From a phage, in NCBI GenBank assembly GCA_018175275.1, contig GCA_018175275.1_4531.1: a stretch of DNA of 64,000 nt; one strand, written 5' to 3'. Positions 16,753-59,465 of the stretch are shown piece by piece (position 1 is the first letter of the stretch; each line of letters begins with the position of its first letter). The translations under genes and the position numbers were made by a program. The notes beneath the pieces were generated by a model. That model was not told the origin of the DNA. It saw nothing but the letters and a program-made list of their open reading frames with translations, and did not search any database.

Positions 16753-18996
16753 TTGATTCGTTTTGTAACTAAATCTAATGGTAAGACAGAGGAGTTTAAC
16801 CCAGAAAAACTTCGCAAGTGGTCTGAATTTGCAGCAGGTAAACTAAACTGGTCTGAAATTGAATTAGAAGCTGTGAAGCGGTGTTATGACGGTGTGTCTA
16901 CACGTGATCTGCATAAAGCAATGATTGCAGCGTGTATTGACAAGAAAACACAAGCTTACAGTGATATGGCAGGAAGACTTCTTCTGGGTATGATTTACAA
17001 ACAGGCTCATGGGGGATACCACAGTATCCCTTCACTGAATACCTTTTATCATGATATGGTAGAACGTGGTCATTGGGCTAAAATGGATTATACTGATGAA
17101 GAGATCAAAGAAATCGGTAAGATTGTAAAGCATAATAAAAATCTAACTTATGGTTATTCTGTTTTACGTCAAATGGTGGATAAATATCTTATTCGAGATG
17201 CAGTAAACGATGTGGTGCATGAGTCTCCACAGTTCCTTTTCATTGGTATCGCAATGAAGGTTATGGAGATCCAACCAAAAGAACGCCGTATAGAAGATAT
17301 TAAAAAACTTTATACTTATGTCAGCGATCTTAAGATTAATCTGCCATCGCCATATCTGACAACTCTACGAACTCCAATCAAAGGAAGTGCGTCTTGTTGT
17401 TTATTCCGTGCAGACGATACGGCAGAGTCTTTAGCCATTGCTAATTACTTAGCTCATGAGTATACGTTGAATAACGCAGGTATTGGTGTTAATCTTCAAA
17501 CTCGTGCCACAGGTCAAGGTGTTAAGAATAATCGTATTATTCACGGTGGTCTTCTTCCGTATCTGAAATGGATGGAAGATAGTGTTGGAGCTTCAAAGCA
17601 AGCAAGCCGTGGAGGTAGTGCTACAGTTACCTTTACCATACTTGAACCAGACTTCGACGATCTGATTCGACTGAAGAATCCAACAACACCTATAGATAAA
17701 CGAGTGGATAAACTAGATTATTCTATTGTTGTTAACCGTTCGTTCTTGCGTCGAGCAGCAAAAAACGAAGACTGGATGTTAGTTAGTTGTGATGATGCTC
17801 CTGAACTTTATGAAGCTTTATATAAAAGTGAAGAAGAGTTTGATGCAGTTTATGACAAAGTAAGTCGTCGTCGCATTAAGAAAAAATTTGTTAAGGCTCG
17901 TGATCTTCTGACAGAGATTATTGTTCAACGTGCAGAAACAGGACGTATTTACATGTTCTTTGCTGACAACGTTAACAACCATACACCTTTCTTGGATACG
18001 GTGTATCAATCAAACCTGTGTCAAGAGATCTTCTTACCAACTAAAGCTTTTCACAGTATGCCGGATCTCTTTACTGGTGAAAATACAGAAGATCAAGAAT
18101 TGGCTTTATGTTTCTTATCTTCTATTGTTGCTGGTCGTGTATTACCTGAAGAATATGAGGATGTTGCATACTACACTGTATTGACAATTGACAACGTTAT
18201 TGAAACAATGGATTATCCATTTAAACATAACGAAATAACTGCTAAAGCACGTAGATCTATTGGTGTAGGCATTACAAACTTAGCACATTACTTGGCAAGT
18301 AATTTTGTAAATTATTCAGATGATTATGCTAAAAAATTAATGCATGAACTTGCAGAACGTCATTACTTTTGGTTGGCAAAAGCCTCTTTGCGTCTGGCTA
18401 AGGAAAAAGGTAATGCAGAATGGATCGATAAGACCAAATGGCCTCAAGGTTGGCTACCGATTGACACCTATGCTAAAGCAGTAGATAGTGTCGGTAACTT
18501 TGATCTTAAAATGGACTGGGAAGGTTTACGTGCTGAAATCATTGAACAAGGTGGTATCCGTAATAGTGTCTTGGCTGCTATTGCACCTAATGAGTCCAGC
18601 AGTTTGGTAAGCAATACTACTAACTCTCTGTACCCTGTTCGTGATACTATTATGTATAAACAAAGTCAGAAAGGTAGTGTATTATTTATTGTTCCAGACT
18701 ACGAAAAACTGAAAATGTTCTACCAATCCGCCTGGGATACTCCGGCTAAAGACCTTGCAGAAATGTATGGTATCTTTACCAAGTTTACAGACCAAGGAAT
18801 TTCTTGTGATTCTTGGCTAGATTATTCTAAATTGGTAGGTGGACGTTTATCAGTGAAAGCCGAGATGCAGTTTATTCTGAATTTTGCTAGATTGGGTGGC
18901 AAGTCGTTGTATTATCTTAACAGTAGAACAAAATCAGCAGATTCTTTAGCACAAGAAGATTCTGAAGACGAAGGGTGTAGTGCCTGTAAAATGTAG
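16753..18996 (+). CDS. nrdA: ribonucleoside-diphosphate reductase large subunit
   Basis: 747 aa; N-terminal ATP-cone-like region; length and order relative to nrdB; TTG start after GGGAGGAG. Confidence 0.9.
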   Translation: MIRFVTKSNGKTEEFNPEKLRKWSEFAAGKLNWSEIELEAVKRCYDGVSTRDLHKAMIAACIDKKTQAYSDMAGRLLLGMIYKQAHGGYHSIPSLNTFYHDMVERGHWAKMDYTDEEIKEIGKIVKHNKNLTYGYSVLRQMVDKYLIRDAVNDVVHESPQFLFIGIAMKVMEIQPKERRIEDIKKLYTYVSDLKINLPSPYLTTLRTPIKGSASCCLFRADDTAESLAIANYLAHEYTLNNAGIGVNLQTRATGQGVKNNRIIHGGLLPYLKWMEDSVGASKQASRGGSATVTFTILEPDFDDLIRLKNPTTPIDKRVDKLDYSIVVNRSFLRRAAKNEDWMLVSCDDAPELYEALYKSEEEFDAVYDKVSRRRIKKKFVKARDLLTEIIVQRAETGRIYMFFADNVNNHTPFLDTVYQSNLCQEIFLPTKAFHSMPDLFTGENTEDQELALCFLSSIVAGRVLPEEYEDVAYYTVLTIDNVIETMDYPFKHNEITAKARRSIGVGITNLAHYLASNFVNYSDDYAKKLMHELAERHYFWLAKASLRLAKEKGNAEWIDKTKWPQGWLPIDTYAKAVDSVGNFDLKMDWEGLRAEIIEQGGIRNSVLAAIAPNESSSLVSNTTNSLYPVRDTIMYKQSQKGSVLFIVPDYEKLKMFYQSAWDTPAKDLAEMYGIFTKFTDQGISCDSWLDYSKLVGGRLSVKAEMQFILNFARLGGKSLYYLNSRTKSADSLAQEDSEDEGCSACKM

Positions 18997-19107
18997 TAGG
19001 AGAACAGATGAAGAAGGGTAAACGTAAAGTTACCGTTCTCACAGAGAGGGGAGAAATCCCCTTGATTGTGGATGTTGAACGTAGATTGTGGGAAGGTGGT
19101 GTTATCA

Positions 19108-19665
19108 ATGGAAAAAAGGGTTAATACATTCATAGATCCTTCCTATGCAGCTTGGAAAGGCATGTTTAATCGCGCATATCGTATGGAAAACATTAGACCA
19201 GGTTATAAAGATGTTACCGTGTGTGATGCTTGGTTCACCTTTTCAAACTTTGATAACTGGTATCAAGAACATAACGTGGAAGGCTTTGTTTTAGATAAAG
19301 ATCTTGTTCTTGAAGGAAATACTGTTTACTGTCCTGAATATTGTAGGTTTGTTCCTCCTTACATAAATACACTCTTAAGTTATGCTAAGAGGTATGAAAG
19401 AAAATACTTACTAGGAGCACATGTTAGGAAAGATGGTAAGATTTATGCCAAAGCTTCTGGGAGCAAAGGTAAGCATTTAGGTTACTTCGCTACAGAGGAA
19501 GAGGCACACTTCGCTTGGCTAAAGGATAAAGCTAAGTCAATCAGGGAAACAGCGGATCGTTACAAAGAGGAAGAACATTTTTATCAAGAGGTGTACAACA
19601 CTCTTGTAAACAAGGCGGATTTCTATTGGCATCTGGCTGAAACAAAAACAGTGTTTCGAGGCTAA
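19108..19665 (+). CDS. HNH-family homing endonuclease with AP2-like domain (MobE-like position)
   Basis: Paralogous to 8971..9612 (YxxW..MxxR N-terminus; GAHVRKDGKIYAKASGSKGKHLGYFATEEEAHFAW AP2-like); between nrdA and nrdB. Confidence 0.6.
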   Translation: MEKRVNTFIDPSYAAWKGMFNRAYRMENIRPGYKDVTVCDAWFTFSNFDNWYQEHNVEGFVLDKDLVLEGNTVYCPEYCRFVPPYINTLLSYAKRYERKYLLGAHVRKDGKIYAKASGSKGKHLGYFATEEEAHFAWLKDKAKSIRETADRYKEEEHFYQEVYNTLVNKADFYWHLAETKTVFRG

Positions 19666-19669
19666 ATAT

Positions 19670-19693
19670 AAAGGGGCTTCGGCCCCCTTTTTA
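19670..19693 (+). terminator. rho-independent terminator
   Basis: AGGGGC-TTCG-GCCCCC followed by TTTTT. Confidence 0.65.
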
Positions 19694-21299: not shown

Positions 21300-21626
21300 A
21301 TGGGTATTGATATCGAATGGCGTATGTTACAGGGTGCACCATATGATAAATGGAAAGAAATATTTGGAGACGACCCACAAGTTGAAGACCAGTTCGATGG
21401 GGACTTTAATTGGTTTCTCTGCGAAGGTTTGGGCTTGGAAAACATTTCCCCGTGGTACGATGCAGATCCTGAAGATTGTGTCTTCGGTGTCAAGCTGTGT
21501 AGCGGCTGTGGTGCTTGTGCCATAGACCTCACAAGCTTAAATAAAAAAGCGAATGAGATCTATTTTGAACTGCTTAATAAGTATAATATTGAAACTGAAA
21601 CATTAGTATCACAAAACGTCTGGTAA
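21300..21626 (+). CDS. hypothetical protein
   Basis: 108-aa ORF in coupled gene chain; CSGCGAC motif. Confidence 0.5.
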   Translation: MGIDIEWRMLQGAPYDKWKEIFGDDPQVEDQFDGDFNWFLCEGLGLENISPWYDADPEDCVFGVKLCSGCGACAIDLTSLNKKANEIYFELLNKYNIETETLVSQNVW

Positions 21627-21635
21627 GGAGAACTG

Positions 21636-22628
21636 ATGCGCTATCTGGTAACAGGTGGTCTTGGTTTTATTGGGAGTGCCGTGGTGCGCTCTCTTTGTCA
21701 AGATCCTAATAACGAAGTTTTTGTCGTTGATAAGATGAGCTATGCAGCAGATATTGAGAATGTAGGCGATATCACTCACGTTAAACTAAGCATGACAGAT
21801 TTGGCAAACGAAGCCCAAGTAAAAAGTTTAGTAGTAGAGTGCAATCCCGATTTCATCATTCACTTAGCGGCAGAGAGTCATGTGGATAATTCTATCAAGA
21901 ATCCACGAGTTTTCATCGACTCCAATATTATTGGTACATACAATTTATTGGAAGCTGCAAGGCTCCTCCCAAAGAATAAACTGAAGATGTTCGTACACGT
22001 CTCCACAGACGAAGTGTACGGCGATATGGCAGACTCTGGCGTTCCCTTTACCGAAGAGACAGCTTATGCCCCTTCAAGCCCATACAGTGCGTCTAAGGCA
22101 GCATCTGACCATCTTGTGAAAGCTTGGCACCGTACCTACGATTTGCCTGTTGTGATAACCAACTGCTCCAATAACTTTGGACCCTATCAACATCCAGAAA
22201 AGCTGATCCCAAAAATCATCACAAGTATCTTGACGAATAAAGAGATTCCGGTGTATGGTAAAGGCGATCAGGTGCGAGACTGGCTTTTTGTTGAGGATCA
22301 TGCGCGAGCTATTCTTCAAGTGGCAACAGGTGGAGAACCAGGTAAAACGTATAATGTGGGAACACGTAATCCCAAAACCAATATGGAGATCATCTATATG
22401 GTTTGTGACTACATGGATGCTGTACATCCAGAAGCAGGAACCTACCCTTCTTCCAACTTGATAACTTTTGTTGAAGATCGTAAAGGGCATGACTTGCGTT
22501 ATGAAATCAATCCTTCTAAGATAGAGTCTGAACTGGGTTGGAGTGCAAACTCTACATTTGAACAAGATCTCTACTCAACGATTGAATGGTACTTAAACAA
22601 CCCTCAATGGTGGAGTGGGAAGATTTAA
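21636..22628 (+). CDS. rfbB: dTDP-glucose 4,6-dehydratase
   Basis: N-terminal [14 protein letters not shown] Rossmann motif, 330 aa; GGTAAGGAG upstream. Confidence 0.85.
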
Positions 22629-22636
22629 GGAGGGCT

Positions 22637-23515
22637 ATGAAAGGTATTATTTTGGCGGGAGGAAGTGGAACCCGCCTTCATCCGGTAACACGCAGTGTGA
22701 GCAAGCAATTGCTCCCTGTGTATGACAAACCCATGATCTACTACCCTTTATCGGTATTGATGTTGGCTGACATTAAGGATATCTTAATCATCACCACACC
22801 AGGCGATCAGGAAGACTTTGAGTATCTTCTCGGAGATGGGTCTATGTTTGGGATAAAACTCACTTACGCAATCCAATCCGAGCCGCGAGGTCTTGCGGAC
22901 GCTTTCATCATCGGTAAAGATTTTATCGGAGAAGACTCTGTTGCTCTTATTTTAGGTGACAACCTATTCTTCGGACAAAGCTTTGGTAAACTACTGATTA
23001 ACGCCAGTGAGATGGTAGATGTTTGTGGCGGAGCTTGTATCTTCGGGTATTTGGTGAAAGATCCTGAACGATTCGGTGTGGTTGAATTTGGGAGTAATCG
23101 TCAAGCTATTTCTATTGAAGAGAAACCTGAAAATCCTAAATCAGATTATGCTGTCACAGGTTTGTATTTCTATGATAACTCTGTTGTTCAACGTGCATTA
23201 GAAGTAACCCCTTCCGCGCGTGGAGAACTGGAGATCACAGATATCAATCGCAGCTACCTCGAAGACAGGAAGTTACAAGTGGAAGTTCTCGGACGAGGAT
23301 TTACTTGGCTTGACACAGGAACACACGCCAGTCTGATGGAAGCTGGTCAATTCGTGCAGACTATTGAGAACCGTCAAGGGTTGAAGATTGCGTGCCTGGA
23401 AGAAATTGCTTTCAAAAAAGGGTGGATTTCTTTAGAGACTTTGGTATATCATGGAAACTCACTGAAGAAAACAGAGTACGGGCAATACCTACTCAAATTA
23501 GCGGAGAGAAAATGA
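22637..23515 (+). CDS. rfbA: glucose-1-phosphate thymidylyltransferase
   Basis: [16 protein letters not shown] signature; internal ATG of track ORF 22586..23515 with AAGGAGGG upstream. Confidence 0.85.
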
Positions 23516-25336: not shown

Positions 25337-25837
25337 ATGGCTAAAGTAGTAGATGAGTTTGATATGCTACGAGTCGATGAAGGACTGAAGCTTACTGTTT
25401 ATCAAGACCATCTTGGTTATTGGACAGTCGGCATAGGACACCTTCTGACTAAAATAAAAGATAAAGCAAAGGCTATTCAAATCTTAGATAATCTCCTTGG
25501 TCGTAAGACCAATGGAGTTATCACAGAAAAAGAAGCCCGTCAAATCTTTGCTGACGATGTTGCAAAAGTGAAGAGAGACATAAAAAACAGTGCTATCTTA
25601 TCACCAATCTATGATAAGGTGAGTGATACTCGTAAATTGGGAATAATCAACATGGTTTTCCAGTTGGGGTTAAAAGGTGCTGAAGGGTTTAAAAATAGCT
25701 TGACTTTAATCAGCAATGCATATTATACTCAAGCAGGTAAAAACATGCGTAAAAGCCGATGGTATAGCCAGACGCCAAACCGTGCTGAACGAGTAATTAA
25801 AGTTCTGACTTCTGGAACTTTAGATGCTTACAACTAA
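25337..25837 (+). CDS. e: T4-type lysozyme (endolysin)
   Basis: MLRVDEGLKLTVYQDHLGYWTVGIGHLL and RWYSQTPNRAERVI closely match T4 lysozyme incl. catalytic E/D/T positions. Confidence 0.85.
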   Translation: MAKVVDEFDMLRVDEGLKLTVYQDHLGYWTVGIGHLLTKIKDKAKAIQILDNLLGRKTNGVITEKEARQIFADDVAKVKRDIKNSAILSPIYDKVSDTRKLGIINMVFQLGLKGAEGFKNSLTLISNAYYTQAGKNMRKSRWYSQTPNRAERVIKVLTSGTLDAYN

Positions 25838-25838
25838 T

Positions 25839-25862
25839 AAAGGGGCTTCGGCCCCTTCTAAA
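25839..25862 (+). terminator. terminator-like hairpin
   Basis: AGGGGC-TTCG-GCCCCT with weak U-run. Confidence 0.4.
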
Positions 25863-25874
25863 AGGAGTGCTACT

Positions 25875-26633
25875 ATGGGAAATAAAACCGCAGCTAAAAC
25901 ACAACGGCAGAAACTGGCTAATTCAGCAAAGATTGAAAGCCGTTATGCAGCAAAAGCGGTAGGTAATGACGATTACCGTTTAGATGAATTTATGCCTGAA
26001 GGGGACCAAAATAAGATTGTTCAAAGCATGATTTGGAATGATCTGACTGTTGTAAATGCTCCGGCAGGGACTGGTAAAACCTCTGTTGCTTTATGGAAAG
26101 CTTTGCAGATGCTTCGTTCAGGAGACTTCCGTAAACTACTTTTTATCAAGAACCCTACTGAAGTCGGAGATGACCAGATTGGTTTCTTGTCTGGGGATAA
26201 AACAGATAAACTAGCAGCACACTACGAATCTACAAAACGTATTTTCCAGCAATTCATGACAGCCAATAAATTGGAAAATGATATTGGATCAGGTAAGATC
26301 GAATTGAATATTCCTAACTATTTGTTGGGAGCTACCCTGGATAATACAATTGTCATTATTGACGAAGCACAACTTATGTCAACAGAAACACTTAAACTTC
26401 TTATTGAACGTGCAGGTATTAATACGCATGTTATTGTATTAGGCGATGTTCGCCAGACATATGCAATTAAAAAACGTAGCAATGGTCTGCATCAAATTTT
26501 GGAACTTTTATATCCAGAAAATGAAGAAGGTGTTCGTGAGCCAATTGTAGATTTTATTGGATATGTTGAACTGACAACGGACGATAATAAACGTGGACGT
26601 TTGTCTAAACTGATTACTGAAGTGTTTATTTAA
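25875..26633 (+). CDS. phoH: PhoH-like ATPase
   Basis: Walker A APAGTGKTS; internal ATG of track ORF 25824..26633 with AAAGGAG upstream. Confidence 0.8.
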   Translation: MGNKTAAKTQRQKLANSAKIESRYAAKAVGNDDYRLDEFMPEGDQNKIVQSMIWNDLTVVNAPAGTGKTSVALWKALQMLRSGDFRKLLFIKNPTEVGDDQIGFLSGDKTDKLAAHYESTKRIFQQFMTANKLENDIGSGKIELNIPNYLLGATLDNTIVIIDEAQLMSTETLKLLIERAGINTHVIVLGDVRQTYAIKKRSNGLHQILELLYPENEEGVREPIVDFIGYVELTTDDNKRGRLSKLITEVFI

Positions 26634-26665: not shown

Positions 26666-27169
26666 TTGATGGGTGTAGCAACAATAGCTATCGGAAGAAG
26701 TGGTATAGATGAGTGCTATCAAACGGGACTCGTAAAACCTAACGAATTTCGTCAAATTTGTGTAAACCATATTGAAAAAGAGATTGCTCTTACTTTAGAG
26801 AATATGACCCTCCGAGATAAACTGGAAATGTTTAAATGTTGGTGTCTAGGAGAAGATTGGCTTTTAAACCATTTTCAAGAACTTTCTGATAGTAAAGAAA
26901 GCTTGTTTGATTGTATAATAGGAATAGCTGGCTCCGATCCTAGCCTTCTGCACATAACAGAAGAAGAGGCGAAGTTACTGTTCTTAAGTAATTTGTTTAA
27001 TAAGAAAGCACTGCTTGTTCGTGATTGCAGTGATCTTCTTAATAACCCGCTCGCAACGTCTGATCAAATTTTTGTTGACAAAGAGACACTACGTGCGATA
27101 GAATACATCTGCAAATATGTGAATGGCGGGAAAGCGGTTCTTAAAACATTAACAGAGGAGGAAGAATAG
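26666..27169 (+). CDS. hypothetical protein
   Basis: 167-aa ORF; AAGGAGG upstream. Confidence 0.55.
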   Translation: MMGVATIAIGRSGIDECYQTGLVKPNEFRQICVNHIEKEIALTLENMTLRDKLEMFKCWCLGEDWLLNHFQELSDSKESLFDCIIGIAGSDPSLLHITEEEAKLLFLSNLFNKKALLVRDCSDLLNNPLATSDQIFVDKETLRAIEYICKYVNGGKAVLKTLTEEEE

Positions 27170-27861
27170 TGACGACAATTATTGCAACCAAGAATAAGAT
27201 TTTGAGTGATGGTAAGGTAACTTTTGGCGGACGTGTAGATTCTATTAATTTCAAAAAGGTCCGAAAAATTGGAGATTACCTTGTAGGTGGTGCTGGTCGT
27301 CTGACCTCCGTGCTTTCTTTCTTTCAATGGTTTGAACAAAACCTACAGTGCGAAGCAGCACGTGATGCTGTCCCTGGTTTGATGATTCATTCTGATCCAG
27401 ATAAAGAAGATGAAGAGTTTATTGCGCTTGTTGTTCATCCAGACGGACGTATTTTCCTGCACGAAGGTAACAATCCAACACGTGCATATCCGATTGATGA
27501 AGAATATTATGCAGTAGGAAGTGGGTCAGACTTTGCTTTAGCTGCTCTTGATGCAGGGGCAACACCAGAACAAGCTATGGAAGTAGCTAAAAAGCGAGAT
27601 GCTTTTTCTGGTGGTGAAACATTTATTGAAGAACAAGACGAGATTATTGAATTAACAGACGATGATTTAGAAAACTTCTCCAAAGAAGAATTAATCAATC
27701 TTTTGAAATTCGGTAATCCCTACGGTGAAGAAGAACCTCGTAACGTGGCAGGTAACGAGGCGGACACTGAAGAAAAATCTGTTGCAGAAAACAACTTGAC
27801 TTCTAAATCTGAAAATATTAATCTCGTAAATGTGGCGGATTTCGAAGGAACCGCTATTTAA
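27169..27861 (+). CDS. HslV (ClpQ)-like Ntn-hydrolase peptidase with acidic C-terminal extension
   Basis: N-terminal MTTII (Thr1), KKVRK, GGAG and AVGSGSDFALAA parallel HslV; GTG start after AGGAGGAAGAA. Confidence 0.6.
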   Translation: MTTIIATKNKILSDGKVTFGGRVDSINFKKVRKIGDYLVGGAGRLTSVLSFFQWFEQNLQCEAARDAVPGLMIHSDPDKEDEEFIALVVHPDGRIFLHEGNNPTRAYPIDEEYYAVGSGSDFALAALDAGATPEQAMEVAKKRDAFSGGETFIEEQDEIIELTDDDLENFSKEELINLLKFGNPYGEEEPRNVAGNEADTEEKSVAENNLTSKSENINLVNVADFEGTAI

Positions 27862-27865
27862 CAAA

Positions 27866-27888
27866 CTGCCCCTTCGGGGGCATTTCTT
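27866..27888 (+). terminator. rho-independent terminator
   Basis: GCCCC-TTCG-GGGGC followed by ATTTCTT. Confidence 0.5.
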
Positions 27889-27906
27889 AAACATAGGAGA
27901 TTAATA

Positions 27907-28341
27907 ATGTTACAAGTTCCTGCTAAGTTTGTTGAAGGCGCTATCCACTCTTACCGTCAAACATGTAAGAGGGCAAGAAACTGTTTAGATGGTCTGGTGG
28001 CAAAAACCTATACTGTTGAAAAGAAGAAACGTTGGTTTGGCAAAGATGTTTACGAAGTTAATATTTTTGGTGAACATAAACTAAACCACGATACTCCTGA
28101 AAACATGTTAGAAATATTTCTAAGAGATGACAAAATATCTCCTATGGATTACCAACTTTTAAAATTTTATGATTCTTCTTTGGCTATTGATAAGTTTGTT
28201 GAGGATATTTTGTCTAGAAAAACAGATAAAAACACTTATCCTCTAGAGGCTGATCAAATAGGATTATTAAACGAGATTTCATCTTTTAAAGAGTTGGATA
28301 ATATTACAAAAGAGGAGATTTTAGATGGCATTAGATTATGA
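27907..28341 (+). CDS. hypothetical protein
   Basis: 144-aa ORF; TAGGAGA upstream. Confidence 0.55.
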   Translation: MLQVPAKFVEGAIHSYRQTCKRARNCLDGLVAKTYTVEKKKRWFGKDVYEVNIFGEHKLNHDTPENMLEIFLRDDKISPMDYQLLKFYDSSLAIDKFVEDILSRKTDKNTYPLEADQIGLLNEISSFKELDNITKEEILDGIRL

Positions 28342-28834
28342 TCGCCCAACGAGCGATTATTATCCTACACCGCAAAAAGCAATCAATAGTTTGTTTAGTG
28401 TTATAGATTTCAAAAATCTAAAGGAAGAAGGTTGGGTTTTTGCAGAACCTTGCAGAGGTGAAGCTGAAGCGATTTATCGCCATTTTCCTGAAGGTTCAGA
28501 ATATTGTGAACTTGAAGAAGGTAAGGATTATTTTAGTCACGAGTGGGAAAATCGTCCCGACATTATAATCACAAACCCTCCATTTAAGTTAGCAATGGAG
28601 TTCTTGGAAAAGAGCTTAAAAGAGGCGGATGTTTGTATTTATCTTCTTCGGTTGGGCTTCTTGGAGTCAAAGAAACGACGAGAGTTCCATCAAAAGAATC
28701 CACCGACAAACCTTATAGTTCTTTCAGAACGGCCTTCGTTTGTTGCAGGTGGAACAGATAAGACAGCATACGCTTGGTATGTATACGACCCAAAGAATCG
28801 TTTGGGCCTCTCTCAACCATTTTATTTTGTTTAA
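28325..28834 (+). CDS. putative DNA N6-adenine methyltransferase (small phage Dam-like)
   Basis: YYPTP near N-terminus and catalytic-type NPPF tetrapeptide; 169 aa. Confidence 0.45.
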   Translation: MALDYDRPTSDYYPTPQKAINSLFSVIDFKNLKEEGWVFAEPCRGEAEAIYRHFPEGSEYCELEEGKDYFSHEWENRPDIIITNPPFKLAMEFLEKSLKEADVCIYLLRLGFLESKKRREFHQKNPPTNLIVLSERPSFVAGGTDKTAYAWYVYDPKNRLGLSQPFYFV

Positions 28835-54765: not shown

Positions 54766-56360
54766 GACAATCTCCTCTCATCGTTAGCCATCTTTCATGG
54801 CAATCATCAATCACCAACATCATACGATCAATCTTAAGGAATTACAATCGAATTACCATAGGGGATTCCTATCAATTATCCCATATATACCGATTATTTT
54901 TGACACCCCACTCTTGTATAAAAAGTAACCCAAAATATCTACGGGGAGAGATTATTTCGGGACACCTTGTTTCATGGCAATCATGGCAAGAATATCTAAT
55001 AGAATCAATATCCTATGGCAAAAATCATGGCGCATACGTAAGAAGTGCTTAACGCGAATTTTCGGGCCGTCAGGTCCACGCAGCGACAATTCCCAAATAT
55101 CATGCGAATGAGAATAATTATCATTCGTATTCAATGACTTATGCAAGGCTCATGCCAACATAGCGACAAGGTGGGCCACCTGATTATAAATCACACAAAT
55201 ACTTATTTATCAATGGTTTGGCAACTTCATCATATGACGGAACACTGTCAACTAATCCCGCTCATGACAAGCAGACTATTATTTATATGAGAATGATTAT
55301 TATTTAAACGTTTATTAACATAAAAACTAAAATAAATCAAGAATTTTCTGATTTTATTTACGTTTAAGAGAACTTGCTCAACATTCCCGCCTGTGGCGGT
55401 AACATTTCGCCCCCAAAATTATTGACTTTTATTCTATTATGTGCATAGTGTGCAATGTATCGGAATGATGATAATCATCCTCCCATTGCCCCCATAATTA
55501 TTGCCTTGCTAATCTTTTCATTGCTAATCATTACAATGATTATTGTTATTGCGCTAATGTTATGATCTTGGTAATTACATATAATGCTAATAATAAGCCA
55601 GCGCAATAAGTGTAAGCGTCATTACGCTTGCAATTATTGCAAGCTACGCAGTAACAAGAAATAACCGTCACCGATGGTTATGATTGTTGGGGTGTAGTTG
55701 GCTTATTATTAGCTCGCTATGTGTCCGGCATAGCGTGCTAATGATGACTCTGTGAATGATTCGTTTTGTAATGATTTCATTCATGCACTATTTTGCTAAT
55801 AGTTATTATTTTAATGGTTTCGTTTGTTATTGTTCGTTAGTTGGTTGTTTTGTCGTGTTATCGTTATTTTGCTTAGTATTCATCATGGTTTGATTGTTTG
55901 TCGTTATCAATCATCTTGCTATTATTCCTTTGATTATGATTAGTTTGCTTATTGTTTTATGTTGTTTGTTGGTTAGTTGTTGCGAACTATTATCAACATT
56001 ATAATTATGCGCTTATATTGCATAGATAATCATGGGTAGATGATAATGGTTATCATTGCACTAGAAAGGAGGTAAAAGGGTGTTTTTGATGGTTTGTTGT
56101 TGGTTGTTGATCGATTTTAACCGCTCTAAATGGCTCTCTAACAGCCTGTAACCCTGGGAGGTATGGTTATTCGTTTGCTGGTTGATTAGCTCGATACCGC
56201 GATTTATTCAGTTTTGTTCTGTGTCGGTTTTTCATAGGCGGAACCTATTGAGAAGATGATAAATAAACTTGTTTGTTATTGTCTGATTAATAGGGTTAGT
56301 CTATCAACATTGTTCGGGCAAAAAGAAAGGGCGCTTGGTGCGCCCTTGTTTTGTTGTCAA
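54766..56360. other. ORF-free island with iterons, palindromes and strand-compositional skew
   Basis: No ORF >=60 aa with SD on either strand over about 1.6 kb; six (T/C)GCTAAT copies at 55505-55805; C-poor G+T-rich plus strand 55800-56000. Confidence 0.5.
56318..56348 (-). terminator. rho-independent terminator
   Basis: Minus strand AAGGGCGCA-CCAA-GCGCCCTT followed by UCUUUUU. Confidence 0.55.
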
Positions 56361-56594
56361 TTATAACGCTTCATAGATTGAGTAGATCCGGTTTGCCAGG
56401 TCATTACGAAAGCGGAATTTTTCATCACGTTTAATCATCAGATCCTTAAAACCGCATTCTTTCAATGCTTCATTAACTTTATGGCGGCAAACGTTCATAT
56501 TATCCTGCGCGTCACCAATAAACTTATTACTGTGATGCATTGCTTTGATCTCTTCCTCTAACACCAGGGCAACTACTGCGATCATCTTTTTCAT
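56361..56594 (-). CDS. hypothetical protein
   Basis: 77-aa ORF; AGGAAGAGG upstream. Confidence 0.55.
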   Translation of the reverse strand: MKKMIAVVALVLEEEIKAMHHSNKFIGDAQDNMNVCRHKVNEALKECGFKDLMIKRDEKFRFRNDLANRIYSIYEAL

Positions 56595-56623
56595 GCGTCT
56601 ATCCTCTTCCTATTGCGTTCAAT

Positions 56624-56639
56624 GGGGCGTTACCGCCCC
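56624..56639 (-). promoter_or_regulatory. intercistronic RNA stem-loop
   Basis: GGGGCG-GUAA-CGCCCC between co-directional genes. Confidence 0.4.
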
Positions 56640-56648
56640 GCTTATGGT

Positions 56649-56885
56649 TTATTGATTGATGTTATAATGAAAGTTATTTTCTTCAATAGCTTTTAAAATA
56701 AAAGCCGTGATCGCTTTCGTGTCTACTTGTTCGAACGTATCAGAATAGCACCAATAATAATCATCCCCTACTTTCGGCGGGTAAACCTGGACAAGGAGAT
56801 CGCCACCTGGTTGATCTATAAGCTCAACATGCAAGCCGGATGATTCAGCGGTTTTAACGGCGTTTAATACTGTTGCAATACTCAT
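56649..56885 (-). CDS. hypothetical protein
   Basis: 78-aa ORF; AGGGAAAGA upstream. Confidence 0.55.
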   Translation of the reverse strand: MSIATVLNAVKTAESSGLHVELIDQPGGDLLVQVYPPKVGDDYYWCYSDTFEQVDTKAITAFILKAIEENNFHYNINQ

Positions 56886-56905
56886 AATCTTTCCCTTTCT
56901 GATGT

Positions 56906-56921
56906 GGGGCGTTGCCGCCCC
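56906..56921 (-). promoter_or_regulatory. intercistronic RNA stem-loop
   Basis: GGGGCG-GCAA-CGCCCC between co-directional genes. Confidence 0.4.
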
Positions 56922-56929
56922 TTTGTTGA

Positions 56930-57229
56930 TTAGATCGCTGTTTCCAGTAGTTCGGCTAACGTCTTACCGCCTGATAGTTGGTCTAACGTTTGCTCTTCTG
57001 GCAAGAAATTAGCTGATATTAAACCGACTTGATTCCCTTTGTGCCAGTTAGCCTGGCGGATGATTCCATCCTTTAAGGATTTTACCGCCATTGTGCAACC
57101 GTCGCCAAATGATTCATTTTTATGGTCCATCACTTCATAAGCGCCCAGTTTGCTGCTGTTAGGCACCATTAACGCGAACACATCACCAACAACCAGTTTT
57201 TCTACGGTAACAATAGCGATAGTTTCCAT
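56930..57229 (-). CDS. hypothetical protein
   Basis: 99-aa ORF; GAGGAAAA upstream. Confidence 0.55.
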   Translation of the reverse strand: METIAIVTVEKLVVGDVFALMVPNSSKLGAYEVMDHKNESFGDGCTMAVKSLKDGIIRQANWHKGNQVGLISANFLPEEQTLDQLSGGKTLAELLETAI

Positions 57230-57244
57230 TTTATTTTCCTCATT

Positions 57245-57305
57245 ATCGGCGGCACCATTGCCGCCCTACGTGGTAAATATTAGCACACTGGCGATCTGTG
57301 TCAAT
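57245..57305 (-). promoter_or_regulatory. PeSL-like cassette (early promoter + 5' stem-loop)
   Basis: Minus strand TTGACA, TAnnnT-type -10, GTAGGGCGGCAATGGTGCCGCC hairpin. Confidence 0.55.
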
Positions 57306-57310
57306 ACTTT

Positions 57311-57697
57311 TTATTCAATATAAATCAAATTATCTTCACCAATGTAAGCCGACACGTTCGGCATAAACTTAGCTGCATTTGTTAGGCGGTTCGCCGTGTT
57401 AGTGGTGTATATTTCAGGGCGATCCCAAAATCCTACGCCGTGACCGTTACGGGTAAAATGTAAATCATTCCCGATCTGGTTGGCTGTTGCGCCGTCGCTC
57501 ATTGCCTCAGAGATAGCGGCAAGATTAGCATTAATAAAGGCTGTTACATCCTGGGCGATCCGTTCGTCCGCGCTAGGAGAAAAATCATAATCGTCTAAGT
57601 TATCAATAAAATTACCTTCATGATCCCTGGCTGATTCAGCAAAAATAAAGGCTTCTTTATAGCCGTTGATGATTTCAATAATGATTTCTGTTTTCAT
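57311..57697 (-). CDS. hypothetical protein
   Basis: 128-aa ORF; start overlaps upstream stop. Confidence 0.55.
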   Translation of the reverse strand: MKTEIIIEIINGYKEAFIFAESARDHEGNFIDNLDDYDFSPSADERIAQDVTAFINANLAAISEAMSDGATANQIGNDLHFTRNGHGVGFWDRPEIYTTNTANRLTNAAKFMPNVSAYIGEDNLIYIE

Positions 57698-57909
57698 GCT
57701 GTACGCTCGACAATAATAATGGTTTGCGGTATCTCGTTTTCTACTACTAATAAGGCTTTTTTCTGCGTGATAGATATTTTAACACGTTGTAAAGTAGCGG
57801 TAAAATCTTTCATTTCATTATGCGCGGATTTAGTGCAATGCCAGATCTCAGGCTTACCTATTTGCAAGCCGCGTAAAAATTCTGTTTTACCTGTCTTATT
57901 CGTGATCAT
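57694..57909 (-). CDS. hypothetical protein
   Basis: Internal ATG of track ORF 57694..57918 with AGGTGA upstream. Confidence 0.5.
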   Translation of the reverse strand: MITNKTGKTEFLRGLQIGKPEIWHCTKSAHNEMKDFTATLQRVKISITQKKALLVVENEIPQTIIIVERTA

Positions 57910-57919
57910 TTGATTCACC

Positions 57920-58024
57920 TTAACCGATACCGTGGGAAGATAGGATCATATTAGCCATAGTTGCAACCACTCCAACCGATAACGCCAGGCCCACTATTAC
58001 AACCGTGAAAATTTTCTCTAACAT
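57920..58024 (-). CDS. small hydrophobic peptide (about 34 aa)
   Basis: Not in track; directly downstream of PeSL; MLEKIFTVVIVGLALSVGVVA. Confidence 0.3.
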   Translation of the reverse strand: MLEKIFTVVIVGLALSVGVVATMANMILSSHGIG

Positions 58025-58039
58025 GATTCTACCCTCATT

Positions 58040-58105
58040 AATGGGCGTTGCCTTATTGCCCCGCCCTATGTCGTACACTTTACCAGATAACCGCGTATTG
58101 TCAAA
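58040..58105 (-). promoter_or_regulatory. PeSL-like cassette (degenerate stem)
   Basis: Minus strand TTGACA-16-TAAAGT then GGGCGGGGCAATAAGGCAACGCCC. Confidence 0.5.
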
Positions 58106-58300
58106 CTATTTTTTACAAGGGATCAGTAAACTCCTTGCTACTGCTTCACGTAAACCTTTACTTTTTATTAGATCTATTGTTGCAGGGTGGCAAGTAAAAG
58201 CCTTTGACCATTTTTGATCACCTGGTTTACGGGCGAAAATGTATACTTCCCCGTCGATTTCATCCCAACGAGTATTGCTTGTTAATTTTTTAAGCGCCAT
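58106..58300 (-). CDS. hypothetical protein
   Basis: Internal ATG of track ORF 58106..58330, whose first 10 codons lie in the PeSL hairpin. Confidence 0.5.
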   Translation of the reverse strand: MALKKLTSNTRWDEIDGEVYIFARKPGDQKWSKAFTCHPATIDLIKSKGLREAVARSLLIPCKK

Positions 58301-58319
58301 GATGATTTCTCTTTTAGTT

Positions 58320-58380
58320 GTGAGCGGCACTATTGCCGCCCTACGAAATACATTCTATCAAGTAATAAACTATTGTCAAG
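58320..58380 (-). promoter_or_regulatory. PeSL-like cassette
   Basis: Minus strand TTGACA-16-TAGAAT-7 nt-GTAGGGCGGCAATAGTGCCGCTCAC. Confidence 0.6.
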
Positions 58381-58564
58381 ATTTATTTTACTTCCCAAAC
58401 GGAAAATTCGCTGCCTGTTGGGATCATCTTTTTAATCTTGTTTGCTGCCGCTACCAGGTCAACGGCTTGCACTGTAATAATATAACCAATTGTTGAGGCT
58501 GTTGCGTTGAAAGTTTTCATTATATTACCCTTTAATACAGGCGGGATTAATCCCGCCTTGTTGA

Positions 58565-58735
58565 TTACTCTTCATCGTTGCCGTTATAGTATTCAATGCC
58601 GTTTTCATCGGTTACGGTGATGTTAACGCCACCGATAGCAACACGATCACGGGCAAACGTCATAGCTTCATTTAAATCTTCAGACCAAAAAATATTGTGA
58701 CCTTTGCGTGATACATAAAACATAGTCGGGATCAT
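58565..58735 (-). CDS. hypothetical protein
   Basis: Internal ATG (residue 29) of track ORF 58565..58819; upstream part is the PeSL. Confidence 0.5.
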   Translation of the reverse strand: MIPTMFYVSRKGHNIFWSEDLNEAMTFARDRVAIGGVNITVTDENGIEYYNGNDEE

Positions 58736-58754
58736 GATTTGTTTCTCTTCTGTT

Positions 58755-58820
58755 ATGAGCGGTGGACCATTCCGCCGCCCTATGTGGTAAACTTTACTAC
58801 GTTGTTTGCCTGCTGTCAAA
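58755..58820 (-). promoter_or_regulatory. PeSL-like cassette
   Basis: TTGACA plus GGGCGGCGGAATGGTCCACCGCTC hairpin. Confidence 0.55.
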
Positions 58821-59105
58821 TTATTTTTTAATGTTTTGCCCTACAAAATTGATCACTTCCTTAAGCTGTCTCTCTGTCATGATCGTACCTGGTAATTCCT
58901 CTTTAATTTCTTCCGGTAAATAAATATTACCACGCCAGGTTAACAAACAACCGTTTTGATCTTCGCAGATAGAATAGGAAAACATCCATTCGCAATCATT
59001 TTCAAGCTCCCAAAAACACAAAAAGTCTTCTTTCCCTAAGTTTTCAACGGTTAAACATAATCCGCGACGTGCTGCATAATTACTTAGGCTTTTTGTGATT
59101 TTCAT
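58821..59105 (-). CDS. hypothetical protein
   Basis: Internal ATG (residue 18) of track ORF 58821..59156; upstream part is the PeSL. Confidence 0.55.
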   Translation of the reverse strand: MKITKSLSNYAARRGLCLTVENLGKEDFLCFWELENDCEWMFSYSICEDQNGCLLTWRGNIYLPEEIKEELPGTIMTERQLKEVINFVGQNIKK

Positions 59106-59121
59106 GATTTTTCTCTCTTCT

Positions 59122-59183
59122 TGTGAGCGGCACCATTGCCGCCCTACAAGATACATATTACCAGACTAAGCCGACTTGTCAAA
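59122..59183 (-). promoter_or_regulatory. PeSL-like cassette
   Basis: TTGACA, GTAGGGCGGCAATGGTGCCGCTCACAA. Confidence 0.6.
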
Positions 59184-59293
59184 CTATTTTTTCTTTTTCT
59201 TTGCTTCCAACCGTCTAAGGTTACGGCTTGACTTATTGCGCAAGGCGCTTAGATCGTCGTACCCTTTCCATGCTTGCATATCTTTCGGATTCA
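59183..59293 (-). CDS. small basic protein (about 36 aa)
   Basis: Not in track; GGGGA upstream of ATG; Lys-rich tail. Confidence 0.3.
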
Positions 59294-59303
59294 TGTTATC
59301 CCC

Positions 59304-59465
59304 TTACTTGTTAGCCGGATTATATGCCAGGACCGCGCCGCTTGCTTTCACGCTTTCCGCTTCATAGTTGCGCAGATCGTTTTCTGTAAGGTTGAGCGCG
59401 ATCACTTCCTCGATCTCAACGTCAGCGGCAAGGGCGATCTCTTTGATAATGTCTGTTGTTTTCAT
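59304..59465 (-). CDS. hypothetical protein
   Basis: Internal ATG of track ORF 59304..59504 with AAGGTG upstream. Confidence 0.45.
   Translation of the reverse strand: MKTTDIIKEIALAADVEIEEVIALNLTENDLRNYEAESVKASGAVLAYNPANK

Follow-up and report, generated by a model that had tools for sequence, protein, structure and literature searches.

A long-form phage PPH protein, probably a threonine peptidase without a dedicated AAA+ partner, in a phAPEC8-like Escherichia coli phage

Introduction

The PPH class of proteasome-type proteins is found in tailed phages or prophage regions. Its members are about 140 amino acids (aa) long, have a β-sandwich core with Thr1, Asp17, Lys33 and the oxyanion Gly, and carry neither a propeptide nor the S12/H5 elements at the C terminus. 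PPH and its sister family RPC are the only homologues that lack helix H2 alone (Fuchs et al. 2021, PMC8665760). RPC proteins are more divergent than PPH and have a C-terminal domain, and they have been reported from proteobacterial genomes only, not from phages (PMC8665760). For PPH, no co-occurrence with AAA+ genes was seen, and none of these families showed an informative gene context (PMC8665760); orphan HslV genes have been remarked on in a Salmonella jumbo phage (PMC7823757). Here, we describe a gene for a 230-aa protein of this type in a 64,000-nt stretch of phage DNA (GCA_018175275.1_4531.1, the whole of which is called the window below). Coordinates are window positions unless another record is named. 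The window is identical to Phapecoctavirus DIJ07P2 over 3 kb (100%), and its identity to the phAPEC8-like myoviruses of E. coli (Stephanstirmvirinae) is about 99%.

The best explanation of the gene, to which we assign a probability of roughly 60%, is that it encodes a catalytically competent threonine peptidase of the PPH class, in a long form with a helical module and an acidic tail, and that this peptidase has no dedicated AAA+ partner. The observations that carry this explanation are homology, the fold, residue conservation, the gene context and the absence of hslU, and from them we infer the activity, its independence of an ATPase, the substrates, the oligomeric state and the role of the module.

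Homology and fold

A reading of the DNA made from the sequence alone (the sequence-only reading) had noted a resemblance to HslV, which proved to be far beyond chance. The protein matched phrog_1040 ("peptidase HslV family") with an E value of 1.6e-63 and Pfam PF00227 (Proteasome) with 25.6 bits, above the gathering score of 22.4. T. maritima HslV (Protein Data Bank [PDB] ID: 1m4y) was found at E = 4.9e-9 with the single sequence and at E = 5e-16 with a profile of the family alignment, which comprised 43 sequences down to 26% identity. The best 13 PDB matches of this profile were all HslV, followed by β5 subunits. The hhalign probability was 97.4% for E. coli HslV and only 34% for the T. acidophilum β subunit; the E. 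coli reference sequence was checked against 1e94, and that of T. acidophilum was likewise verified. The AlphaFold2 model built from the family alignment had a mean pLDDT of 86, with the core above 90. A Foldseek search with this model ranked HslV first, narrowly over BPH and the 20S β subunits, and the target-normalized TM scores were 0.65–0.69 for HslV and 0.55 for BPH. The protein is thus a member of the HslV/proteasome-β superfamily, in keeping with the proposed N-terminal nucleophile (Ntn) hydrolase class with Thr1, and its closest solved fold is that of HslV and not of another Ntn class.

The label "HslV-like" is correct at the level of the superfamily but not as a statement of orthology. 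The identity to HslV is 22–28%, and the scores against the two NCBIfam HslV equivalog models (31.4 and 32.2 bits) fell more than 100 bits short of the cut-offs (157.75 bits for TIGR03692 and 137 bits for NF003964). Outside the long clade, the closest relatives detected by the profile are proteins of 137–160 aa (106–129 bits), with HslV at 51–62 bits, and the core superposes on Caulobacter-phage proteins of 131–146 aa with TM scores of 0.78–0.89. Because the equivalog cut-offs failed, helix H2 is missing and the nearest relatives are 137–160 aa long, we file the protein under PPH and not under HslV. It appears to be a long-form member of the phage PPH class, an assignment made by the published description of PPH and not by comparison with the representative WP_042125023.1. 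It shares with the published proteins the tailed-phage origin, the lack of an AAA+ partner, the small nearest relatives, the β-sandwich core with Thr1, Asp17, Lys33 and the oxyanion Gly, the missing H2 and the absence of a propeptide. It differs from them in size, a core of 156 aa being followed by a 74-aa extension that consists of a two-helix module and an acidic tail. A PPH-like core without H2 plus extra C-terminal sequence is also what is described for RPC, but the protein and its long relatives are phage-borne; this comparison was made by the description of RPC and not by its representative WP_140207863.

Homologues were found in 234 phage records and in thousands of metagenomic sequences. 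Each record has them at one place only, and there is accordingly no second homologue in the genome. The family has been described before as PPH, and the gene is already annotated: RefSeq gives "peptidase HslV family", and depositors have used "ATP-dependent protease subunit HslV" and "putative 20S proteasome". Its orphan status is a trait of the family and not a peculiarity of one phage.

Active site

The motifs on which the sequence-only reading had relied are all present, namely the N-terminal MTTII, FKKVRK at residues 28–33 and AVGSGSDFALAA at residues 115–126, and an alignment to the catalytic residues of HslV, which it had recommended, brings the Thr1, Asp17, Lys33 and Ser positions into register. 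T2, D14 and K30 correspond to Thr1, Asp17 and Lys33 of HslV, and G117-S118-G119, the Ser129 loop of the PPH core, corresponds to G123-S124-G125. These six residues, together with M1, T3 and I4, are invariant in the family alignment. G40–G43 (the oxyanion-Gly region), D144, G148 and G149 are conserved in at least 90% of the sequences. D144, S147 and G148, in the sequence RDAFSGG, align with Asp166, Ser169 and Gly170 of the T. acidophilum β subunit. The same pattern was seen in the 150 best cluster representatives taken from a library of 1.8 billion proteins, where a Met-Thr start (137/150), G-[ST]-G (144/150) and D-x-x-[ST]-G-G (112/150) recur.

No propeptide precedes Thr1. A threonine behind the initiator Met is a substrate of methionine aminopeptidase, as in E. 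coli HslV. The host enzyme would therefore strip the initiator Met and expose Thr1, and the network of Thr1, Asp17/Lys33 and Ser129/Asp166/Ser169 would then cleave peptide bonds in the way known from HslV and the 20S proteasome. Judged by its residues, the protein is probably a catalytically competent threonine peptidase. The opposite possibility, raised in the sequence-only reading, is a noncatalytic mimic or decoy of HslV, which might poison host HslV rings or titrate HslU. Nothing more specific than the acidic disordered tail and the divergence of the homologue speaks for it, and it is contradicted by the conservation of the whole active-site set: the nucleophile and its supporting residues are invariant or nearly so, both down to 26% identity and over the 150 cluster representatives, which indicates selection for catalysis. 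A dead mimic is therefore highly improbable.

The comparison with the better known systems shows a mosaic of features. HslV and the protein have in common the MTTI N terminus without a propeptide, the GDGQVT-type strand, the KKVR(K/R) region around Lys33, the GxAG loop and the GSG loop. The protein departs from HslV in the lack of H2, the lack of an hslU gene, its C-terminal extension and its failure at the equivalog cut-offs. It also retains the 20S-type RD-x-x-SGG, where E. coli HslV has C159 and T162. With the 20S β subunits, it shares the match to PF00227 and the complete set of Thr1, Asp17, Lys33, Ser129, Asp166, Ser169 and Gly170, but it is much smaller and has no propeptide, no α-subunit partner, no H2 and no H5. 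BPH and Anbu are, like this protein, stand-alone proteasome homologues without a known unfoldase, and BPH is among the top fold matches. Unlike it, they retain H2 in addition to H1 and possess characteristic loops of their own or an H5 coiled coil (PMC8665760).

Loss of helix H2 and docking to host HslU

The model has one long apical helix, H1 (residues 45–67). At the position of H2 in HslV, residues 68–83 form a coil (pLDDT about 90) that carries two family-conserved prolines, P69 and P77. In HslV, the pocket for HslU's C-terminal tail is formed by Phe54 and Phe57 of H1, Ala79 and Lys80 of H2, and Gln114 (PMC6429459). The counterparts of Phe54 and Phe57 are L49 and F52, which are hydrophobic. 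Without H2, the protein lacks half of the tail pocket and a large part of the docking surface at the apex, and this weakens the proposal that the phage peptidase hijacks host HslU.

In its general form, this proposal holds that the peptidase docks on host HslU or on another host unfoldase, giving a hybrid ATP-dependent protease directed against host or defence proteins. Proteobacterial hosts of PPH phages generally carry hslVU, HslV is the nearest solved family in both sequence and fold, and the H1 part of the pocket is kept as L49 and F52. However, the H2 part, including Ala79/Lys80 and the HslU-facing apical surface, is replaced by the proline-bearing coil, the identity to HslV is low, the equivalog thresholds are missed by far, and the published survey saw no AAA+ co-occurrence for PPH. 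On balance, we consider such docking quite unlikely.

Two local features reminiscent of HslU were tried as candidates and rejected. The extreme C terminus was considered as a plug resembling the HslU tail or an HbYX motif, but its final residues are unconserved. A likeness of the local sequence DDDLENF to DEDLSRF of HslU is absent from the family consensus and was taken as chance.

C-terminal extension

The sequence-only reading described a 60-aa acidic C-terminal extension. The acidic character is confirmed (20 Asp/Glu versus 5 Lys/Arg, pI about 4.05), but the extension is longer, at about 74 aa (residues 157–230), and is not a uniform tail, because it includes a helical module at about residues 160–185. 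The AlphaFold2 model places two helices there, at residues 164–169 and 172–181 (pLDDT about 90). The module is marked by T-x-E-x-L-x-x-F-[ST]-[KR]-E-[EQ]-L-[LIV]-x-[LM]-[LIV], a motif that occurs in 71 of the 78 full-length relatives and in 36 of the 47 library representatives with 200 aa or more; all 66 short forms lack it. Beyond the module, the protein ends in an acidic disordered tail (about residues 191–230), and in other relatives, unrelated sequence of as much as about 200 aa follows instead; the extra regions of these longer relatives (up to 379 aa) gave no Pfam match. We suggest that the module has a structural or docking role, that is, compensation for H2, stabilization of an oligomer or binding of a partner.

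The junction of core and extension coincides with an imperfect tandem duplication in the DNA (27623–27667, +; unit 21–22 bp, 2.1 copies, 84% match). Its translation is IEEQDE/IIELTDD, and RefSeq NC_052658 lists it as a repeat_region.

Search for an AAA+ partner

The Walker A motif occurs in only three ORFs (open reading frames) of at least 120 aa in the window. These are a 161-aa ORF, a 134-aa kinase-like protein and PhoH, and there is no AAA+ gene among them. Neither the window nor the annotated reference genome contains hslU. The peptidase is thus encoded as was claimed, without an HslU partner and without an AAA+ unfoldase in the window. No AAA+ gene lies beside PPH in six other phage contexts, and no fusion protein of more than 350 aa, which was sought as a clue to a partner, was found among the best 150 library relatives. 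The idea of an orphan peptidase is not new, since the lack of AAA+ partners has already been published for PPH.

About 5 kb past the end of the window, the genome encodes a 379-aa AAA ATPase (NC_052658.1, 76595–77734, −; gp114 of phage nepoznato, phrog_2376). It scores 29.9 bits against Pfam AAA PF00004 (cut-off 21.2) and has a Walker A motif (GTKGSGKT), a Walker B motif (VLFDEFD) and a second region of homology (NRPSR). Its best PDB matches are the AAA domains of Rix7, Afg2 and p97, which places it in the classical clade and not near HslU; no other AAA-family protein was found in the annotated reference genome. Members of its family are labeled "ATPase", "FtsH-like protease" or "ATPase or Zn metalloprotease", and records of certain related phages of E. 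coli, Serratia and Klebsiella have the family at two places each.

The two proteins could together form a phage-encoded ATP-dependent protease. The ATPase would qualify by its PF00004 score, motifs and structural matches, some depositors have called it an FtsH-like protease, and both genes are present in 107 records listed under "Escherichia". However, the genes are about 40 kb apart on opposite strands, the ATPase lacks the canonical aromatic-hydrophobic-Gly pore loop, and its weak profile matches are to clamp-loader or DnaC-like families. The two distributions also differ. The ATPase family is widespread in phages of Gram-positive bacteria and in crAss-like phages. Enterococcus, Bacillus, Staphylococcus, Lactobacillus, Lactococcus and crAss-like phages often carry it, and the ten organism names that are most frequent for PPH include none of them. 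In the other direction, Vibrio (36 records), Caulobacter (28) and Rhizobium (10) figure prominently for PPH and are missing from the ten most frequent names for the ATPase. Because the ATPase and PPH differ in phylogenetic distribution, the ATPase was rejected as a dedicated or specific partner, and we regard the pairing as very unlikely.

Gene organization and neighborhood

The ORF reported at 27169–27861 is real, with the same coordinates on the + strand and 230 codons. Table 1 lists the features of the locus. The G of the GTG start codon is the final base of the TAG stop codon of the upstream ORF (a 1-base overlap). Promoter-like sites around the gene were not enriched over shuffled sequences.

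Table 1 Features of the peptidase gene and its upstream neighbors in the window
Feature	Position	Strand	Remarks
PhoH-like P-loop ATPase	25824..26633	+	Conserved neighbor, two genes 5' of PPH
Upstream 167-aa ORF (phrog_14834)	26666..27169	+	Probable true start ATG 26669; helical, coupled to PPH
σ70-like promoter match TTGACA-18-TAGAAT, 11/12	27075..27104	+	Consensus match only; within the 3' end of the upstream ORF
Shine–Dalgarno GAGGAGG	27155..27161	+	7 nt 5' of GTG, read from the sequence
PPH-type proteasome/HslV-like threonine peptidase coding sequence (predicted)	27169..27861	+	230 aa plus stop, GTG start
Thr2 codon (Thr1 nucleophile after Met removal)	27172..27174	+	Family-invariant; 137/150 representatives begin Met-Thr
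Catalytic core, residues 1–156	27169..27636	+	Alignment, AlphaFold2 model
Conserved C-terminal module, residues 157–190	27637..27738	+	pLDDT about 90 and motif conservation
Variable acidic disordered tail, residues 191–230	27739..27858	+	pLDDT below 50; unconserved even in close relatives
Intrinsic-terminator-like GC-rich hairpin TGCCCCTTCGGGGGCA then TTTCTT	27867..27890	+	6 nt past the stop; consensus match only

PPH is the last gene of a co-directional block that encodes NrdA, NrdB, sugar epimerases, glutaredoxin, lysozyme, PhoH, the 167-aa protein and PPH. The 167-aa protein gave a confident helical model but no informative structural or sequence match. Its homologues lie near PPH in two further clades, whose PPH proteins are 42–50% identical to the one described here (hhalign probabilities of 99.8% at locus L008 and 99.5% at locus L009). 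The homologue is directly 5' of PPH in L008 and is separated from it by one 92-aa ORF in L009, and PhoH precedes it in both. PhoH is also found 5' of PPH in a Vibrio phage (1.193.O, see below). The short-form contexts in Caulobacter, Rhizobium and Rhodobacter phages have no shared neighbor, and the order PhoH–helical protein–PPH is common to the long-form clade only. In this clade, PPH is thus linked to the helical protein and PhoH, whereas the published survey saw no informative context for PPH. The block as a whole is syntenic, and common descent therefore explains much of the linkage between the helical protein and PPH.

In Vibrio phage 1.193.O, a 366-aa TnpB/OrfB-like ORF labeled "coil containing protein" lies between PhoH and PPH (L004:2767–3867).

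The linkage bears on the possibility that PPH is a sequence-specific processing enzyme, or a ligase or transpeptidase similar to connectase, with the upstream helical protein as its partner or substrate and possibly with a link to PhoH. Translational coupling of the upstream gene to PPH and the true homologues near PPH in L008 and L009, with PhoH before them, would fit such a relationship. Connectase, which is monomeric and lacks H1 and H2, is a precedent for the loss of flanking helices, and a single deletion in phage VEcB (see below) hit all three genes together. On the other hand, the synteny spans the NrdAB–glutaredoxin–lysozyme–PhoH block and is explicable by common descent, and the short PPH forms of Caulobacter, Rhizobium and Rhodobacter phages do without these neighbors. 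PhoH-family proteins are usually tied to RNA and not to protein. We therefore rate a processing function as unlikely.

The same linkage would also permit a more elaborate model, in which long PPH, the upstream helical protein and possibly PhoH form a phage-specific proteolytic module without AAA+. The two-helix element would replace H2 or plug the intersubunit activation pocket in the manner of the HslU tail, giving a mini-proteasome that is constitutively "on", and selected proteins of the host, for instance defence or stress proteins, would be recruited or gated by the acidic tail. This model is speculative, and its probability is low.

Three other regions of the window, 56248–59305, 21415–23503 and 18965–19672, do not align to the close reference phage nepoznato and probably hold variable or inserted genes, e.g. 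homing endonucleases. Two genes 3' of PPH, a 169-aa ORF (28325–28834, +) matches only the C-terminal part (206–373 of 458) of the DNA methyltransferase family phrog_799 and may be a truncated or split methyltransferase.

A natural deletion and the question of capsid maturation

In phage VEcB (NC_052663.1, L011:2165–2968), an in-frame ORF of 267 aa fuses PhoH residues 18–133 to PPH residues 63–221. Through the deletion, PhoH has lost its C-terminal half and PPH its residues 1–62, with Thr1, Asp17 and Lys33, and nothing is left of the upstream gene. If it is no assembly artefact, the module of PhoH, the helical protein and PPH is dispensable for propagation. The fusion ORF is still labeled "peptidase HslV family" despite the lost nucleophile.

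VEcB also bears on whether PPH might serve as the prohead protease in capsid maturation, given that none is annotated in the reference genome. It is on record as an isolated phage whose genome is complete, and it has no intact PPH. Phage prohead proteases are encoded in the head module, between the portal and capsid genes, and come from the S78, U9/U35 or S49 families. PPH, by contrast, belongs to the early/middle metabolic block, on the strand opposite to the structural genes, and a separate XkdF/S78-like gene holds the canonical portal-adjacent position. This gene, gp002 of NC_052658.1 (L001:1313–1792, −; 159 aa), lies between the portal and scaffold-like genes and scores 44.9 bits against Peptidase_S78_2/XkdF (cut-off 24). 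Its product is likely the prohead protease, and its label "DNA methyltransferase" is probably wrong. A role of PPH in capsid maturation is scarcely credible.

Discussion

We propose that the phage carries a long-form PPH protein that is active as a threonine peptidase. It would be produced together with the other proteins of the early/middle block for nucleotide metabolism (NrdAB, glutaredoxin, lysozyme, PhoH and the helical protein). After exposure of Thr1, it would most likely work without a dedicated AAA+ unfoldase, on peptides or on unfolded or disordered proteins of the host or the phage. The C-terminal module would probably offset the lost H2 structurally, act as an assembly or docking element, or both. 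The gene is best regarded as accessory and nonessential.

Several points weigh against this proposal. Lone proteasome-type subunits are usually inactive before ring assembly, and the loss of H2 may alter or block rings like those of HslV, a dodecamer of two stacked hexameric rings. That the C-terminal module packs against the core is predicted from its high pLDDT only. The genome encodes a classical-type AAA ATPase elsewhere, and independence of an ATPase is therefore no more than probable. The deletion in VEcB could be an assembly artefact. Finally, our literature search turned up no experimental study of HslV-like or PPH proteins from phages.

Phage proteasome homologues are widespread and, in the literature found, uncharacterized, and the question of their role is not newly raised by this gene. 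The main value of the present analysis is the correct filing of the protein under PPH rather than HslV. The long form also provides experimental handles, namely a conserved C-terminal module, a coupled upstream gene and a natural deletion mutant. Should PPH proteins work independently of an unfoldase, they would represent the simplest proteasome-like enzymes that are self-sufficient, and they might help phages to remodel the host proteome or to disarm host defences.

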